Shown here: positions 3,305-60,571 of the stretch, piece by piece
Position numbering within the stretch: the first letter of the stretch is position 1
Layout of the letters: each line of letters starts with the position of its first letter
NCBI GenBank assembly: GCA_964563935.1
Contig: CAZLZE010000004.1
Span: forward strand, 6,514-70,513
Origin: an uncultured Phycisphaerae bacterium
GTDB lineage: Bacteria > Planctomycetota > Phycisphaerae > JAAYCJ01
Reading direction: 5' to 3'
Length of the DNA stretch: 64,000 nucleotides
Made by a program: the position numbers and the translations under genes
The notes under the pieces: model-generated
What the model saw: only the letters and a program-made list of their open reading frames with translations
What the model was told of the DNA's origin: nothing
Database searches by the model: none

Positions 3305-4504
3305 TCAGCCATACTCCAGCGAGTACGTCTGATCAAATGTCCCTGCCTTGTTCTTGATCCGAATCTTCGGAGCCGCCGGGCGCGTCCCGTTGCACTCAAC
3401 ATCGATCCGCTCGCCAAGCTTCCCCTGCAATCCCTGATTGAAACTGTACTGTCCACCCTCGGGATTCATCGCCAGTGACGACACCACCGGCTCGCCCACA
3501 TCCAGCGTCGCCGCCTTCTCTTTCGTTACCTCCAACAGCACGCTATTCGGAAACGATCGTCCCGCCAGTTTCCACGGAACCCCCGCCTCATCTTTTCGCT
3601 CGATTTCCCAGTCGTATACGCGGTACTTGCCTACCGGCAACTTGCCCACCCCTTTCGTATGGCGAAGATCGAGCAGACCGTTCAACCCGCCCACGCGAAC
3701 CTTCGTCAGCCCTTCCGGAACGCGCACCTCGCCCAGCACAATGTTCTCGCACGATGTAAACGCGACAAACGCCCCGTCTTGCGAGGGCTCCGGGTGATAG
3801 AACTTGCCATCGACCTCGATGTACCGGCCATTGAACCGGGCGTCCCAGATCTTTCCCTTGTCGATCAGAATTCGGTCGATCTGCCCGAAATCGTCCGCGC
3901 TGTCGTTGAACGTCCCGTTCGCGTTCGCATCCACCAGCGCACACTGATGCGACTTGCCACCGATCATCACCTGACCTTCATAATAACACGCCGAACCCAG
4001 ATTGACGCTCGACCGATTGGAACTCAGGTGAAACTGAACCTGAAAATGGTACGTAACCGGTCCGTCCTGAGTCGAAAAGACAACCTTCACCGGGGCAAAA
4101 ACCGCCCGGTAGTAGTTCTTGTCGTACTCCTGGACCTCGAACGGCTTATATGCTGTCTCGTTCGTCAAGTCCCCGTCGCAGTTCGAGTCCACGACCACTC
4201 GGTCATACGAGCCCTTCGGCTTCGATCGGTCGAAAACCATCCACACCAACCCGCTCTTCGCCATCGGCGTCGACCACTTCGCAAAAATCGGGTCCGAAGC
4301 GACAAACTTCCCCGCCTTGACCTCTTTGGGTAATGTTTTCTCGATCGGCACGGAAAAATGGCAGACATTCTCCCACCCAACCTTCTCACCTAACTCTCTC
4401 GCCACCCCATACTGCAGCCATTGCTTTTCCTGCGCAAACAACGTCCCTGTGGCAAAGATACCGATCACAATCAGGAGGAAACAACGAATCCAAGGTCCTC
4501 TCAT
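3305..4504 (-). CDS. secreted hypothetical protein
   Basis: About 400 aa. Signal peptide 'MRGPWIRCFLLIVIGIFATGTLFAQ' starts at the internal Met at 4504. No catalytic motif recognised. First gene of a three-gene minus-strand operon. Confidence 0.45.
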   Translation of the reverse strand: MRGPWIRCFLLIVIGIFATGTLFAQEKQWLQYGVARELGEKVGWENVCHFSVPIEKTLPKEVKAGKFVASDPIFAKWSTPMAKSGLVWMVFDRSKPKGSYDRVVVDSNCDGDLTNETAYKPFEVQEYDKNYYRAVFAPVKVVFSTQDGPVTYHFQVQFHLSSNRSSVNLGSACYYEGQVMIGGKSHQCALVDANANGTFNDSADDFGQIDRILIDKGKIWDARFNGRYIEVDGKFYHPEPSQDGAFVAFTSCENIVLGEVRVPEGLTKVRVGGLNGLLDLRHTKGVGKLPVGKYRVYDWEIERKDEAGVPWKLAGRSFPNSVLLEVTKEKAATLDVGEPVVSSLAMNPEGGQYSFNQGLQGKLGERIDVECNGTRPAAPKIRIKNKAGTFDQTYSLEYG

Positions 4505-14190: not shown

Positions 14191-14931
14191 ATGAGTGACT
14201 CGTGGGATACGTTATACCGTTGGAACTGGTTTGAACGATCGCGATGGCTTGGCTCATTCCGAGCCGTCAAACATAACTCGCCGCGGGCGTTGCAGAGGAT
14301 CCTGGCGGATAGGATTGATCCGGCCGTTCTGGATTGCTCATGCGGGTTTGGCCTCAAGACGATTGTGATGAAGGAACTGGGGATGCGCGTGTATGGCAGC
14401 GACGCCAGCAGCTTCGCCGTAGCCAAGGCACGGGAACTGGCGGATACCCAGGGGCTCAAGATCGAATACTTCACCGCCCGTTAGGACGACCTGCCCCAAC
14501 AGACGGATTTGCGGTTTGACGCTATCTTCAACGACGCCCTCTCGTGGATTACCTCTCACGAAGAATTCACAGCCTCCCTGGCTGGTTTCCGCGAAGCCCT
14601 GAAGCCGGGCGGGATTCTGGTATTCATGGGGGCGGAGAATGGCAACGATCATCCTAACGGCATCGAAGGCAGCCCGGGCGCGATAGTTCACGATAATGGT
14701 CCGCTCAAACCCGGCAAAGGGAAAACATCCCGCGAGAAACACATTACCGCGATACTTGTTGATCATATCCTTCAGGCCGGGAAGCTTCTTCTCCTTCCAC
14801 TCGTACGGCGGGACCTTTCGTTGTTCGAGGATTTCGAACCATTCATGCCAGGCGGATTCGGTCGCATTTCGGCAGGGAAGCTGATAGCTGAAAGCTATTT
14901 TTCCTTGACCCCCCGATATGTTGTGCTATAA
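14191..14931 (+). pseudogene. class I SAM-dependent methyltransferase, disrupted by an in-frame TAG and a degenerate 3' part
   Basis: Motif I 'VLDCSCGFG' and motif II/III 'FDAIFNDALSW...LKPGGILVF' lie in one frame interrupted by TAG at 14482-14484 ('EYFTAR*DDLP'). After ~14645 the plus-frame sequence is Gly/Pro-rich and GC3 drops. The tail contains a repeat/terminator hairpin. Confidence 0.5.
14884..14903 (+). terminator. small hairpin plus T-run (terminator-like) carrying the dispersed AGCTGATAGCT motif
   Basis: ATAGCT-GAA-AGCTAT followed by TTTTT, between the methyltransferase remnant and the nrdR promoter. Confidence 0.4.
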
Positions 14932-42956: not shown

Positions 42957-42985
42957 GATAGCTATCAGCCGTCAGCTTTCAGCTT
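42957..42985 (+). repeat. solo copy of the dispersed AGCT-rich repeat
   Basis: GATAGCTATCAGCCGTCAGCTTTCAGCTT, right after the yitJ stop. Shares 'TCAGCTTTCAGCTT' and 'GCTATCAGC' with the repeats flanking 59074-59433. Confidence 0.5.
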
Positions 42986-43106: not shown

Positions 43107-44159
43107 ATGACTGTAAGCACCAATAATACATCCATTTACACACTCAGCAAAGAGCTGGGCATATCGACGGCAACCGTGTCCCGTGCCCTCAAGAACCACC
43201 CAGCCATCAGCGCCGCTGTACGCAAAAAGGTCCAGGCCGCCGCACGCAAATGCAACTACCGGCCGAAGTTCGTCCGCACGCGAATCACTAATCTGTGCGT
43301 CCTGATCCAGCAATACGACGAGCATCCCCTGGACTTCGGGTCCTTCATCTCGCGCGTCCTCGAGGGCGTCGCCGAGTATTGCCGCCAGGAAGAACTGGAA
43401 ATGAGCCTCTTCAGCGCACACGTTCGCGAACTCAATCAGTACGACATCGTTCGAGAACTCCGCCGACGAAACGCGGACGGCGCTGTAGTCCTCCGGGCAA
43501 CCAGCCAGAGCCGATACCTGCCCCAAATGGACGCCCAGGAATTCCCCTACTTCTGCCTGCTCGCCAACGACGGAAACGCGTCCGAAAAACTGCTGTCGAT
43601 CGATGAAGAAAAACTGGCGCATGAGGCGGTAAGTCATCTGGTCGAACTGGGACATCGTCGGATCGGAGCCTTGGTGACCTCGCCGATGACCACTGCCGGC
43701 CAGTTGCGCCTGAAGGGATACCGGCGAGCACTGAAAGAGCACAAGATCGAACCGATAGAGTCACTGGTCTTCACGGCCGACGCCAAGATTCACTGTGGCG
43801 GACTGCCGTTCGGAGTGTTGGGAATTGACGCGCTGCTGTCCCGCGAACCGAACCTGACAGCTGTGTTCACCACATGCGAGGAAAGCGCACGCGGAGCGAT
43901 CTTCCGATTGAATGAGCGAGGAATCGCCGTTCCGGACCGGATGTCCGTCGTCGGGTTCGACGATTTTCCAGGCACAGCCTACACTTGGCCGCCGCTGACC
44001 ACAGTTCGCATTCCGTACCTGGCCATCGGATACGAAGGGGCAAGGCAGGTCCACCGCCTGACCCGAGGACTGCCCGTGCTCATCGATGACGAGGTCAAAC
44101 GCAAAACAGCCGGTGAATTGGTGATCCGGGGAACAACGGGAAGAATTGCTGATTGCTGA
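43107..44159 (+). CDS. LacI-family transcriptional regulator
   Basis: N-terminal HTH 'IYTLSKELGISTATVSRALKN' and a PBP type-1 sugar-binding core. 350 aa. Confidence 0.8.
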   Translation: MTVSTNNTSIYTLSKELGISTATVSRALKNHPAISAAVRKKVQAAARKCNYRPKFVRTRITNLCVLIQQYDEHPLDFGSFISRVLEGVAEYCRQEELEMSLFSAHVRELNQYDIVRELRRRNADGAVVLRATSQSRYLPQMDAQEFPYFCLLANDGNASEKLLSIDEEKLAHEAVSHLVELGHRRIGALVTSPMTTAGQLRLKGYRRALKEHKIEPIESLVFTADAKIHCGGLPFGVLGIDALLSREPNLTAVFTTCEESARGAIFRLNERGIAVPDRMSVVGFDDFPGTAYTWPPLTTVRIPYLAIGYEGARQVHRLTRGLPVLIDDEVKRKTAGELVIRGTTGRIADC

Positions 44160-44183
44160 TTGCTGATTGTTAATTGCTAATTG
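44145..44183 (+). repeat. tandem heptamer repeat (ATTGCTG x3, ATTGTTA, ATTGCTA, ATTG)
   Basis: Counted directly. Overlaps the last codons and stop of the LacI-family gene. Confidence 0.8.
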
Positions 44184-44195
44184 AAGGAGAAGAAT

Positions 44196-44921
44196 ATGAA
44201 GAAACTGTCCAACCGGCAAAGCTCCGCCAATCAACAATTAACAATCAGCAATCAACAATCGTTCACCCTCATCGAACTCCTCGTCGTTATCGCCATCATC
44301 GCCGTACTCGTAGCCCTGCTCCTGCCGGCGCTCCAGCGGGCACGCGATGAAGCGAAGACTTTACGCTGCAAGAGCCAATTGCGGCAGTTGGGTACCGCGA
44401 TGGTGATCTACCAGAATGACTTCAAATATCTCCCCTACTATTTCGGGGCCCTGAAGGCAGACTTGACCGTTGACCCGACAAAATGGGCGCACCGGTACAT
44501 TGCAGACCCGCGACTGGTCGTCTGCCCGGGCGACCCGTGGGGCGGATCAGAACCGTACCAGGGACCAGGTTTCACGGACCCGAAATATAACTACCTTGAA
44601 CAGCGATGGTATTGGACCCCACCGTGCTCGTATTGGAGCCCGTTGAATCATTACATGGCTTGGCTGGGAAGCAAGGCGTTCGCCGACAGGTTCATGATCG
44701 AGTACAGCGGGGGTTTTGTCAGGCCCGAAGACAGATTGGACCCGGGACAGGACTACATGGGACAAGACTGCACATACATTCGGTGCATGAACGACGGCTA
44801 TGTTCGGCATCCGGGTCGTACGTCCATTCATCTGTCACCCTCGGGTCGCGTGACAGATTTCCGCTCGTCAGCTTCGAATCCCTGGGAATGGCCTGGGTGG
44901 TATCGAATGGATCGATATTAA
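44196..44921 (+). CDS. prepilin-type N-terminal cleavage/methylation-domain protein (DUF1559-like)
   Basis: '[28 protein letters not shown]' class-III signal with an unusual 22-aa leader ending NQQS. Start at the ATG at 44196, with GAAGGAGAAG upstream. Confidence 0.7.
44228..44261 (+). repeat. tandem heptamer repeat (CAATCAA-type), inverse complement of the upstream repeat
   Basis: The reverse complement matches 44151-44183 at about 31/34 positions. It lies within the codons for the prepilin leader. Confidence 0.75.
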
Positions 44922-58094: not shown

Positions 58095-59018
58095 ATGGCA
58101 GGTACTACCGCGTTTCTGTTCCCCGGACAGGGAAGTCAATATGTGGGTATGGGACTGGATCTGTATCAGAATGTCCCTGCCGCAAAGGATATTTTTGACC
58201 GGGCCGATGCCCTCCTGGGCTTCAAGATTTCCGAACTGTGCTTCACCGGCCCTCTGGAAAAGCTCAACGCCACCGATATTCAACAGCCGGCAGTGTTCGT
58301 CATGTCCGTTGCCGCCCTGGAAGCGATGCGGGCGGGCGCAAAGTATAAGGATGTAACTCCTGCCTATGTCGGCGGTCTGAGCCTCGGCGAATACACCGCT
58401 CACTACGCGGCTGGGAGTCTCGATTTCGAACCGGCCCTCAAGCTCGTTCAGGCGAGAAGCCAATTCATGCAGGAAGCGTCCAAAATGGTCGACAGCACCA
58501 TGGTCGCGATCGTCGGCCTGGAGGACCAGAAGGTCCAGGAAGTGTGCGACCAAGTGCGAGGCAGCGATGTCCTGGTTCCCGCGAATTACAACTGTCCGGG
58601 ACAAGTGGTCGTCTCCGGACACCGCGCCGCGTGCGTGCGCGTGGCCGATGCGGCCCAGCAGGCCGGCGCGATGAAGGCGATTATTCTCGATGTGGCGGGC
58701 GCGTTCCACTCGCCGCTCATGCAGCCGGCGGCGAACCGACTGATGACCGTACTGAACCAGACGGAATTCCGGTCGCCGAAGATTCCGGTCATGGCCAACG
58801 TCGATTGCGAGTTCCACTCCGACCCAGCCGACATCCGCCAGTCGCTCTTCCGCCAGTTGACCTCCAGTACCTACTGGGGCAAGTCTCTCAAAAAGTTCCA
58901 GGACCTCGGCGTGACGGATTTTGTGGAAATTGGTCCCGGCCGAACCTCGGCAGGATTCCTAAAACGCATTGACCGCAAGGCAAAATGTGTTAATATCTCG
59001 GGAATTGCGGACATATAA
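58095..59018 (+). CDS. fabD: malonyl-CoA:ACP transacylase
   Basis: 'FLFPGQGSQYVGMG' and 'GLSLGEYTA'. Start at the ATG at 58095 after GGAGAA. 307 aa. Confidence 0.85.
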   Translation: MAGTTAFLFPGQGSQYVGMGLDLYQNVPAAKDIFDRADALLGFKISELCFTGPLEKLNATDIQQPAVFVMSVAALEAMRAGAKYKDVTPAYVGGLSLGEYTAHYAAGSLDFEPALKLVQARSQFMQEASKMVDSTMVAIVGLEDQKVQEVCDQVRGSDVLVPANYNCPGQVVVSGHRAACVRVADAAQQAGAMKAIILDVAGAFHSPLMQPAANRLMTVLNQTEFRSPKIPVMANVDCEFHSDPADIRQSLFRQLTSSTYWGKSLKKFQDLGVTDFVEIGPGRTSAGFLKRIDRKAKCVNISGIADI

Positions 59019-59019
59019 A

Positions 59020-59052
59020 AGCTGTCAGTTGTCAGCTATCAGCTTTCAGCTT
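59020..59052 (+). repeat. left arm of the 33-bp inverted repeat flanking the four-helix-bundle gene
   Basis: AGCTGTCAGTTGTCAGCTATCAGCTTTCAGCTT, starting 2 nt after the fabD stop. Confidence 0.8.
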
Positions 59053-59073
59053 AAAGACGAAGAGGGCTGATCA

Positions 59074-59433
59074 TTGCAGGATTTTCGGAAGTTGAATGTT
59101 TGGAAAAAGAGCCATGATGTCGTCCTGAAGATATATGGTGTGACGGCGAAATTTCCTCCTGCTGAAATGTATGGATTGACGAGCCAGATGAGGAGGTCCT
59201 CCGGCTCCATCGCGATGAACATTGCGGAGGGATGCGGACGAGGCGGCGACACGGACTTTGCTCGGTTCCTTGCCATGGCGATGGGATCGGCCAGTGAGCT
59301 GGAATATCAGATATTGTTGGCCAAAGACCTTAACTTTGTGAAGGACCCTGATTACAATTTGTTGTCGTCGGATGTAATAGAAGTAAAACGAATGCTATCT
59401 TCTCTTATCCAAAAGCTGAGAGCTGATAGCTGA
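59074..59433 (+). CDS. four-helix-bundle protein (the family encoded in 23S rRNA intervening sequences)
   Basis: 119 aa. '[18 protein letters not shown]...[15 protein letters not shown]...[22 protein letters not shown]' matches the conserved core of this family. TTG start after GAAGAGGG. Confidence 0.65.
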
Positions 59434-59445
59434 GAACTGACAGCT
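59413..59445 (+). repeat. right arm of the 33-bp inverted repeat
   Basis: AAGCTGAGAGCTGATAGCTGAGAACTGACAGCT. Its reverse complement matches the left arm at 31/33 positions. It overlaps the last 7 codons of the four-helix-bundle ORF. Confidence 0.8.
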
Positions 59446-59462
59446 ATCACGAAAGGACAGTC

Positions 59463-60203
59463 ATGAGTTTACAGGACAAAGTGGCGTTTGTGACGGGCGG
59501 ATCTCGCGGTATTGGTCGCTCTATCTTATTGGCCCTGGCGAAGGAAGGGGCGACGGTGGTGGCTGTGGCGCGAAACCAGGACAAACTCAACGAAGTGGCC
59601 CAGGCGGCCGGCGGACTGGCCGGAACCGTTCAGCCCAAGGTCGTCGATATCGGCGACGCCAAGCAACTTGAAGCCGCGATCGAGGAAACCGTCGAAAAAT
59701 TCGGCAAAATCGATATCCTCGTCAACAACGCCGTAATCACCCGCGACGGCCTGCTCATCAGAATGGATGAGAGCCAGTTCGACGAAGTGATCAACGTGAA
59801 CCTCAAGTCGGCCTTCATCTCCATGAAGACGGCCGCCAAGCATATGCTCCGCCAGCGTTCCGGACGCATCATCAACATCACCAGCGTGTCCGGAATCATG
59901 GGCAACGCCGGACAGGCCAACTACTCTGCCGCCAAGGCGGGACTCATCGGACTGACCAAGTCCACCGCCAAGGAAGTCTCCAAACGCGGCATCACCGTCA
60001 ACGCTGTCGCCCCGGGCTTCATCACCACCGACATGACCGACGTCCTGCCGGACAAGGTCAAGGAAGTGGTCAAGCCCATGATCCCCATGCAGCGGTTCGG
60101 CAATCCCGAGGAAATCGCCTCCGTGGTGACGTTCCTCGCCTCTGACGCCGCCAGCTATGTCACCGGCCAAGTCATCGTCGTCGACGGCGGCCTGCACATG
60201 TAA
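59463..60203 (+). CDS. fabG: 3-oxoacyl-[ACP] reductase
   Basis: '[15 protein letters not shown]', 'NNAV', 'YSAAKAG' SDR motifs. 246 aa. Confidence 0.9.
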
Positions 60204-60227
60204 CCGCGGCCAAGCGGTCGTTTTTGT
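60203..60227 (+). terminator. weak terminator-like hairpin after fabG
   Basis: ACCGC-GGCCAA-GCGGT followed by CGTTTTTGT. Confidence 0.35.
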
Positions 60228-60571
60228 ACCAGTTTTTCAGTGCGCACCGCAAAAACCGTGAAAACGGTGCAATTCCGGTGCGCTTTCGGTGCGTGAAAGA
60301 GAAAGTGGGTGGGATGGCGAAAATGGGCAGGGAGTCAGTTCCGCAGGGCGGGTCGTTCTGCCGTTTTCGGCTCCCTTGACCCGCCAGTGCGGAAGCCAAA
60401 GACGGCGGGTTAATAACCCGCCCCACATGGAGAAGAATCGCCCGCTAAAGCGTGCGCCACATAAGAGGAGAGGATGTCAGCCGAGGGCGGTGAGAGCTAC
60501 ACAGAAAAGAGGGCACGGCGTGCTGGGCCGGGCCCCTGCGAATTTTGAAGGTTGTGGGATCGTTTTTCAGT

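Follow-up and report, generated by a model that had tools for sequence, protein, structure and literature searches.

A clasped four-helix-bundle gene between fabD and fabG

The window analysed here, a stretch of 64,000 nt from an uncultured Phycisphaerae bacterium (contig CAZLZE010000004.1, positions 6,514-70,513, forward strand), carries between two genes of fatty acid synthesis a cassette (59020-59445) in which a small gene for a four-helix-bundle (4HB) protein is enclosed by inverted arrays of a seven-nucleotide repeat. The upstream host gene, fabD (ACP S-malonyltransferase; 58095-59018, + strand; TIGR00128, 302.8 bits against a cutoff of 260.9, and PF00698), ends with a TAA stop at 59016-59018, and 1 nt separates this stop from the left arm of the cassette. 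The downstream host gene, fabG (3-oxoacyl-ACP reductase; 59463-60203, + strand; TIGR01830, 324 bits, cutoff 297.75), starts with ATG at 59463, and the right arm ends 18 nt earlier. An earlier note on this DNA, made from the sequence alone, had placed the fabD stop, the arms, the open reading frame (ORF) and fabG at these coordinates, all of which hold on rechecking, and had found no acpP after fabG; tblastn at E ≤ 1 gives no acpP match anywhere in the window.

The enclosed gene (59074-59433, + strand) starts with TTG and encodes a 119-aa protein of the 23S rRNA intervening-sequence (IVS) protein and Avd-like fold family. Its assignment to the four-helix-bundle family of 23S IVSs, proposed in the earlier note, is borne out by profile search, with both models far above their cutoffs: PF05635 scores 127.7 bits (cutoff 33.8, E 2.7e-37), aligning ORF residues 5-109 to model positions 1-105 of 106, and TIGR02436 scores 126.9 bits (cutoff 24, E 3.6e-37). 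A putative Shine-Dalgarno sequence, AAGAGGG (59060-59066, + strand), lies 7 nt 5' of the TTG. A profile of 25 homologs matched the PDB entries 2GSC (E 7.7e-29) and 2RLD (E 1e-13), in each of which five chains are deposited, and the 2GSC protein is described as a homopentamer (PMC4990558). Among 25 diverse 4HB homologs 27 columns are invariant, and a single search gave more than 7,900 homologs at E ≤ 1e-3 among 8,000 candidates scored. The closest homologs (64-69% identity, the nearest at 69%) come from Dehalococcoidia, Nitrospirota, cyanobacteria, Acidobacteriota, Chloroflexota and one Bathyarchaeia bin. To our knowledge the PF05635/TIGR02436 family has solved structures and no known function, and we know of no catalytic activity of the 4HB protein. 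The exact ORF product has no record, its sole match being a cluster mate from the same organism with identical DNA, so there is no population variation to exploit; the 64-kb window holds no second 4HB gene.

Tandem Repeats Finder (TRF) resolves each arm into a tandem array with a period of 7 nt and 4.6 copies, a feature absent from the earlier note. The left arm (59020-59052, + strand) reads AGCTGTC, AGTTGTC, AGCTATC, AGCTTTC and a final AGCTT, and the right arm (59413-59445, + strand) reads AAGCT, GAGAGCT, GATAGCT, GAGAACT and GACAGCT, giving array consensuses of (AGCTNTC)n and (GANAGCT)n, respectively; the left-arm heptad can be described as a core TCAGY followed by a 2-nt spacer. The arms are 33 nt each, lie 360 nt apart and are complementary at 31/33 positions (94%), exactly as the earlier note had them. 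The 33-mer occurs with up to three mismatches at two sites only in the 64 kb, namely the arms, and not once in 100 shuffles, which rules out a chance origin. The two positions that depart from Watson-Crick pairing, one G-G mismatch and one U-G wobble, are 14 nt apart and thus share the same heptad phase. The left array ends 21 nt before the start codon, and the right arm covers the last 21 nt of the ORF, encoding its C terminus KLRADS* (the last six codons and the stop). KLRADS-like tails are retained in many homologs, and an identical arm 21-mer together with the KLRADS tail is present in homologs of merely 66% identity.

The stem that the earlier note had predicted around the whole ORF, should the region be transcribed, appears in both the minimum-free-energy (MFE) and centroid structures of an RNA fold of 59005-59465 (z = -5.09). 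In the MFE fold the Shine-Dalgarno-like 59060-59066 is partly paired with 59398-59412 (UCUUCUCUU) in a weak extension of the clasp. A second inverted repeat, of 41 nt at 73%, was also found. An Rfam search of the cassette yielded no family covering the arms. GC content is ~0.42-0.55 in the cassette vs ~0.6 in its flanks.

Heptad arrays accompany the gene family across phyla

We collected a family sample of 83 loci homologous to the 4HB gene, from more than 10 phyla, and called arrays in them by TRF at period 7. Upstream of the gene 74 loci had an array and downstream of it 75 did, with 66 loci having both, and array density beside the 4HB ORF reached 3.0/kb vs 0.26/kb elsewhere in the same loci, a ~12-fold difference. 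Each side carries a median of 4.4 units (interquartile range 3.4-5.0), the left array usually stopping 15-50 nt short of the start codon and the right one lying over or just past the stop.

The hosts of these clasps are diverse. In one locus the 4HB gene sits between lpxB and gidB with CAGCT-type heptad arrays flanking it on both sides; in another it lies between a carboxyltransferase gene and hisA, with a clear 3' array and a degenerate upstream one. Cultured cyanobacteria share this anatomy: Calothrix PCC 7716 has a TTAGC/GCTAA clasp around its 4HB gene. Viral contigs have a TCGGC/GCCGA clasp. On a plasmid of another cultured cyanobacterium, Pseudanabaena galeata (NZ_CP112875, 45156-47320), the gene interrupts a CRISPR-Cas operon, with cas6 on one side and cas4 on the other; ~16 GCTAAAA units come before it and ~9 GCCAAAA units after it, and arrays of the TTAGC type lie farther upstream. 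TAACTGA-type units are present in the arms of two loci. Two distant viral homologs (37-39% identity) carry the heptads GGAGAGT and GGGAATT instead, showing that the period is conserved and the sequence is not. Since homologs in unrelated contexts (lpxB/gidB, carboxyltransferase/hisA, cas6/cas4) have the same type of arm, the clasp belongs to the gene and not to the site. The window locus is an ordinary member of this class of heptad-clasped 4HB cassettes and displays both features of the class.

Left and right arms change together

The commonest left core is TCAGC, matched by GCTGA in the right arm, and where the left core is TCAGT, TTAGC, TCGGC, TCAGG or TTAGT the complementary core is found on the right. 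Left and right cores were concordant in 48/52 loci (permutation mean 21.8, p ≤ 1e-4), including 17 of the 21 loci with a non-TCAGC core on one side or more. Over 48 loci Watson-Crick pairing reached 93-98% at the five core positions, and 73% and 59% at the two spacer positions, so that the general stem consists of blocks of 5-6 bp, separated by a tolerant position that recurs at 7-nt intervals. Within this range the window copy, at 31/33, sits at the well-paired end. RNAduplex energies were -71 kcal/mol for arms of the same locus, -56 for arms of different loci and -47 for the shuffled baseline; because the rank test on these energies is confounded by array length and by the high shuffled baseline, we relied on complementarity in a fixed window instead, which was 17.4/21 within a locus vs 15.4/21 between loci.

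Ten Terriglobales loci carry the cassette at one shared host site, directly after a conserved gene end (...GAAGAGCTTTTAG), and their shared host flanks identify them as orthologous copies. Among them the core switches from TCAGC/GCTGA to TCAGT/ACTGA in both arms together: in three heptads in a row, and in the same phase of each, 2 copies have a T-A pair where 6-7 have C-G, with no broken pairs, and the number of heptads varies too. These ten copies make up a ready-made series on joint array evolution.

The cassette is dispensable at its site

FabD homologs place the host among the Phycisphaerae (Planctomycetota). Three relatives of the host have no 4HB gene at the fabD-fabG junction. The one with a FabD 84% identical has a 116-nt spacer (925-1040) with a lone GGCTTTG x4 array and a GC hairpin; in the one at 80% the spacer measures 47 nt and contains a degenerate remnant (ACTGACG, GCCGATA, GCTAT); and the one at 74% has a 180-nt spacer (3422-3601) occupied by an unrelated long compound palindrome (GGGTGGCATGGGCAA...TTGCCCATGCCACCC). 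The cassette is therefore dispensable. As a separate observation, the fabD-fabG junction in these relatives seems to collect palindromic elements. The fabG ribosome-binding site GAAAGGA (59451-59457, + strand), recognized by comparing the window with the three relatives, is kept in all four and lies intact just past the right arm.

Across the family, the genes on either side share the orientation of the 4HB gene in 47/72 loci vs 25% expected, and the 4HB start follows the upstream stop by a median of 87 nt, both values resting on crude ORF calls. This co-directionality and short spacing fit a promoter-less passenger that relies on host transcription.

Arrays without the gene are more numerous than cassettes

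The right-arm 21-mer (AAGCTGAGAGCTGATAGCTGA) occurs exactly in at least 120 metagenome stretches. We surveyed 83 occurrences in 80 listed loci, all from metagenomes rather than from this genome, and found a 4HB gene nearby in only 10 of the 83. Window-like arm spacing of 360-370 nt was seen in 5 of the 80 listed loci. ORF-less hairpins, consisting of a TCAGY array, 9-171 nt and a GCTGA array with a mismatch at every seventh position, account for 38 of the 80, and the remaining occurrences are lone or degenerate arrays. Among the listed loci the partner array of the 21-mer is always upstream and never downstream within 1 kb. Rfam returned no family matches on 19 loci with ORF-less hairpins. Judged by this layout, the cassette resembles the complete version of a repeat family in which short ORF-less forms predominate, and the ORF-less hairpins look like miniature derivatives of the element.

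Several further arrays deserve mention in their own right. One metagenome stretch (positions 1-711) has a heptad hairpin in an rRNA operon spacer, between the 16S rRNA 3' end and two tRNA genes. Within the window, (AGCTNTC)x3.7 lies at 42960-42985, right behind the stop of the 41066-42955 gene, and (AAGCTGA)x2.7 at 14878-14896, near the 3' end of the ORF 14509-14931 and with no obvious partner. A pair of complementary arrays is formed by (ATTGCTG)x5.6 at 44145-44183, over the stop of a LacI-type ORF (43107-44159), and (CAATCAA)x4.7 at 44228-44260, within the first codons of a prepilin-like ORF; the two would fold into a hairpin with a 44-nt loop, in which the downstream gene has its ribosome-binding site and ATG. 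The LacI-type gene was considered as a second clasped cassette and downgraded, its 3' array pairing far better 45 nt downstream than 1.2 kb upstream.

Transcription signals and other features of the window

The scan for consensus signals gave nothing terminator-like on the + strand in the fabD-fabG interval; it gave a hairpin with a T-run 3' of fabG (60203-60229, + strand), which from its sequence is likely the end of a fabD-cassette-fabG transcription unit. Sigma-70-like promoter matches of 9/12 each, as consensus matches only, were noted at 58969-58996 in fabD and at 59330-59358 in the 4HB ORF; the former falls shortly before the left arm, in a 3'-terminal part of fabD whose coding sequence is conserved in relatives. 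Downstream of the terminator-like site a non-coding 11-nt tandem repeat (CGGTGCGATTC x2.6) occupies 60265-60293. The gene neighbourhood comprises fabD, fabG, a PNP_UDP_1-family gene, a GDSL lipase gene and a major facilitator superfamily (MFS) transporter gene. No rRNA match was found within 58800-59700, and PADLOC returned no defence system.

Interpretation of the cassette and competing explanations

We conclude that 59020-59445 is a copy of a widespread, dispensable element, namely a promoter-less 4HB gene between inverted arrays of ~4-5 heptads, of the same type as the ORF-containing 23S IVSs. For its mode of action we propose a chain of steps which, taken as a whole, we judge slightly on the probable side. 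Transcription would reach the cassette by reading through from fabD; with the right arm synthesized, the arms would pair into a 33-bp double-stranded RNA clasp of 6-bp blocks, each heptad having one tolerant position; RNase III would cut this clasp in the manner known from the Coxiella IVS; and cleavage would free the 4HB message and leave the fabD and fabG messages separate, which we propose is why the insertion is tolerated.

Several observations weigh against parts of this proposal. Typical arms are less perfect than those of the window copy, with a median of 18/21 and a regular mismatch in each heptad, and such moderately complementary arms may be a poor RNase III substrate. At mismatched arm positions we found no excess of G·U over A·C (33 vs 38), so selection on the sense RNA is indistinguishable from a DNA-level or strand-symmetric constraint. 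The promoter-like matches at 58969-58996 and 59330-59358 could yield independent transcripts. Most occurrences of the arm 21-mer come without a 4HB gene, and some ORF-less hairpins precede T-runs in a terminator-like manner, so some functions of the arrays may have nothing to do with the ORF. As to mobility, target-site duplications were seen neither in the window copy nor in 24 other well-defined copies, no near-identical copy was found at a second site (the nearest homolog being the 69% one), and no known mobility enzyme is present. The earlier note's suggestion of a mobile IVS-like cassette stands as far as dispensability goes, given the three relatives' junctions without the gene; recent mobility is unproven, as there is neither a near-identical copy nor a target-site duplication.

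The alternative that survives best takes the heptad arrays to be primarily binding sites of the 4HB protein, on RNA, single-stranded DNA or double-stranded DNA, with a homopentameric ring seated on ~5 heptads per array and arm pairing secondary; gene and arms would then constitute a "master" copy acting in trans on ORF-less arrays, either as a regulator or in maintaining and spreading the repeats, as the REP-associated tyrosine transposase (RAYT) does for REPINs. We regard this as possible and on present evidence rather doubtful. The median of 4.4 units per array is close to the five chains of the PDB relatives 2GSC and 2RLD, of which 2GSC is the one described as a homopentamer (PMC4990558), and the 7-nt period is kept while the unit sequence differs by lineage, as expected of a co-evolving pair of protein and site. 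ORF-less arrays with the same units are several-fold commoner than cassettes, with others in this window, and heptamer arrays close to start codons, lacking an identified partner, have been published for Beggiatoaceae, cyanobacteria and Nostoc (PMC4679880; bioRxiv 10.1101/2022.06.06.494920). The homolog Avd, moreover, is classified with the 4HB family (PMC10053308). Set against this, the coupling between core and protein is weak: protein identity is 0.60 within a core class vs 0.565 between classes, and the Terriglobales proteins are almost unchanged while their core switches from C to T, which argues against tight protein-core specificity. The above-chance spacer complementarity between arms of one locus is not required by a pure binding model, and the 119-aa window protein is near neutral by residue count (16 basic, 14 acidic).

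A broader version of the binding idea would make pentameric Avd-like 4HB proteins the missing partner of the scattered heptamer repeats (STRR, TAACTGA, TCAGCNN and similar) of cyanobacteria, Bacteroidetes, Beggiatoaceae, Acidobacteria and Planctomycetes. Here gene and arrays would be the master copy of a cross-phylum repeat system whose protein would bind ~5 heptads per array and regulate or propagate ORF-less hairpins, and ORF-containing 23S IVSs would be copies that landed in rRNA; we offer this tentatively, as a speculation with the odds against it.

A DNA-level origin, in which the arms are the terminal inverted repeats (TIRs) of a non-autonomous transposon of the miniature inverted-repeat transposable element (MITE) kind moved in trans by a transposase or recombinase, with the 4HB gene a passenger and RNA structure irrelevant, seems to us improbable. 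The insertion polymorphism at the fabD-fabG junction, the inverted termini with ORF-less short versions and the lack of a G·U excess in the arms all speak for it, as does the historical view of IVSs as transposition remnants (PMC4990558). However, the 25 well-defined copies are free of target-site duplications, the arms vary in copy number and core even among orthologs, unlike transposase-specific TIRs, and no transposase lies nearby. The cargo, too, hardly ever differs, being this one small gene with the arms placed alike, the left 15-50 nt before its start and the right over its stop.

Least credible, and in our view very improbable, is that the clasp is a processing or attenuation site selected by the host to uncouple fabD from fabG with the ORF incidental, for although the cassette takes up precisely the space between fabD and fabG, leaves the fabG ribosome-binding site untouched and has a strong predicted stem, relatives with 74-84% identical FabD have unrelated spacers and no cassette, the same cassette type occurs in dozens of unrelated operons and the ORF is conserved as a protein. 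Separation of the two messages as a service to the host, which the earlier note had also suggested, is accordingly unlikely, relatives doing without the cassette.

Novelty and significance

Parts of this picture are already known: 4HB genes outside rRNA are annotated routinely, rRNA IVS stems and their processing by RNase III are established, and heptamers have been published both for the Coxiella IVS and as TAACTGA repeats. In the searchable literature, which leaves subscription journals outside its coverage, we found no report linking non-rRNA 4HB genes to heptad arms. Family-wide, co-varying inverted heptad arrays in ordinary operons, together with ORF-less hairpins, appear not to have been described before.

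The rRNA IVSs and the bacterial heptamer repeats are old puzzles without a mechanism, and PF05635/TIGR02436 is a very large family; a heptad clasp in ordinary operons that is shared with the Coxiella IVS ties these three puzzles together. For annotation it matters that operons in many uncultured phyla are interrupted by these cassettes and by related arrays without an ORF, which may alter how mRNAs are processed in such organisms. At this locus itself the practical message is modest: a fab operon with a dispensable passenger.

Comparison with known systems

Two classes of mobile element were considered and rejected. An integron gene cassette does not agree with repeats on both sides, a solitary copy in a housekeeping operon and the absence of an integrase nearby, and a MITE or insertion-sequence-type element fails on its defining features, with no target-site duplication in 25 copies and arms that vary among orthologs, although an enzyme acting in trans might still be involved.

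The Correia elements of Neisseria are intergenic, co-transcribed inverted repeats whose hairpin is cut by RNase III, altering the flanking mRNAs; they have 26-bp TIRs and a TA target duplication and contain no ORF. The window cassette differs in its heptad-array arms, in the lack of any duplication seen and in the gene carried by its full-length form. In REPIN/RAYT systems (REPtrons) a small gene lies between inverted short repeats that are also dispersed genome-wide as ORF-less hairpins, and the flanking repeat of the window cassette likewise occurs, in metagenomes, as dispersed ORF-less hairpins. RAYT is an IS200/IS605-type Y1 transposase and the repetitive extragenic palindromes (REPs) are single imperfect palindromes, whereas the cassette repeats are tandem heptad arrays and the enclosed gene belongs to PF05635 and is not a Y1 (HUH) transposase.

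In diversity-generating retroelements (DGRs) the accessory protein Avd binds nucleic acid. Avd (bAvd, PF22296/NF033474) belongs to the same four-helix-bundle superfamily as the window protein, and its homology with the 4HB family has been noted (PMC10053308). The window protein matches the Avd profiles weakly, at 17.6 bits for PF22296 (cutoff 40) and 16.9 bits for NF033474 (cutoff 80), and we rejected an identity as DGR Avd. The genes neighbouring the 4HB ORF include no reverse transcriptase, template and variable repeats not having been searched for.

Closer in their repeats are the intergenic heptamers, known as TAACTGA direct repeats from Beggiatoaceae, cyanobacteria and Bacteroidetes, with their partner unidentified (PMC4679880), and as the heptamers of the short tandemly repeated repetitive (STRR) type near start codons in Nostocales, likewise without an identified partner (bioRxiv 10.1101/2022.06.06.494920). 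They resemble the arms in their 7-nt units, their ACTGA/GCTGA-like core, their 2-6 copies, their nearness to start codons and their patchy cross-phylum spread, and differ in being presented as direct repeats with no inverted partner, unlike the arms of the cassette. The former paper does not mention "23S", "S23", "four-helix" or "intervening" (PMC4679880).

The nearest relatives are the ORF-containing 23S IVSs of Coxiella burnetii, Leptospira, Xanthomonas and Brucella, whose S23p ORF shares the PF05635 family with the window copy. By definition a 23S IVS lies within the 23S rRNA gene, in helix 25 or 45. The likeness extends to a length of ~430 nt, terminal inverted repeats forming a ~28-33-bp stem that encloses the ORF, variable-copy tandem heptamers directly upstream of the ORF and a dependence on host read-through that is presumed for the window copy. 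In the Coxiella IVS the terminal stem measures 28 bp, and GACAGAT, in 2-3 tandem units, immediately precedes the S23p start; RNase III excises this IVS by cutting within the stem, with the 5' cut mapping to the start of the first heptamer (PMC4990558). The window copy differs in that it sits in an mRNA operon between protein-coding genes and not in an rRNA gene, in that its heptad unit is AGCTNTC rather than GACAGAT, and in that cleavage would split an mRNA here and not fragment an rRNA. The rRNA-IVS architecture that the earlier note saw, in a fatty-acid-synthesis operon, departs from a 23S IVS in one respect, the element not lying inside a 23S gene, and agrees with it in the long enclosing stem, in the ORF family and in heptamers like those of Coxiella. 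It is this shared anatomy with Coxiella that makes the comparison with IVSs one of homology of the whole element, and not of the ORF alone.

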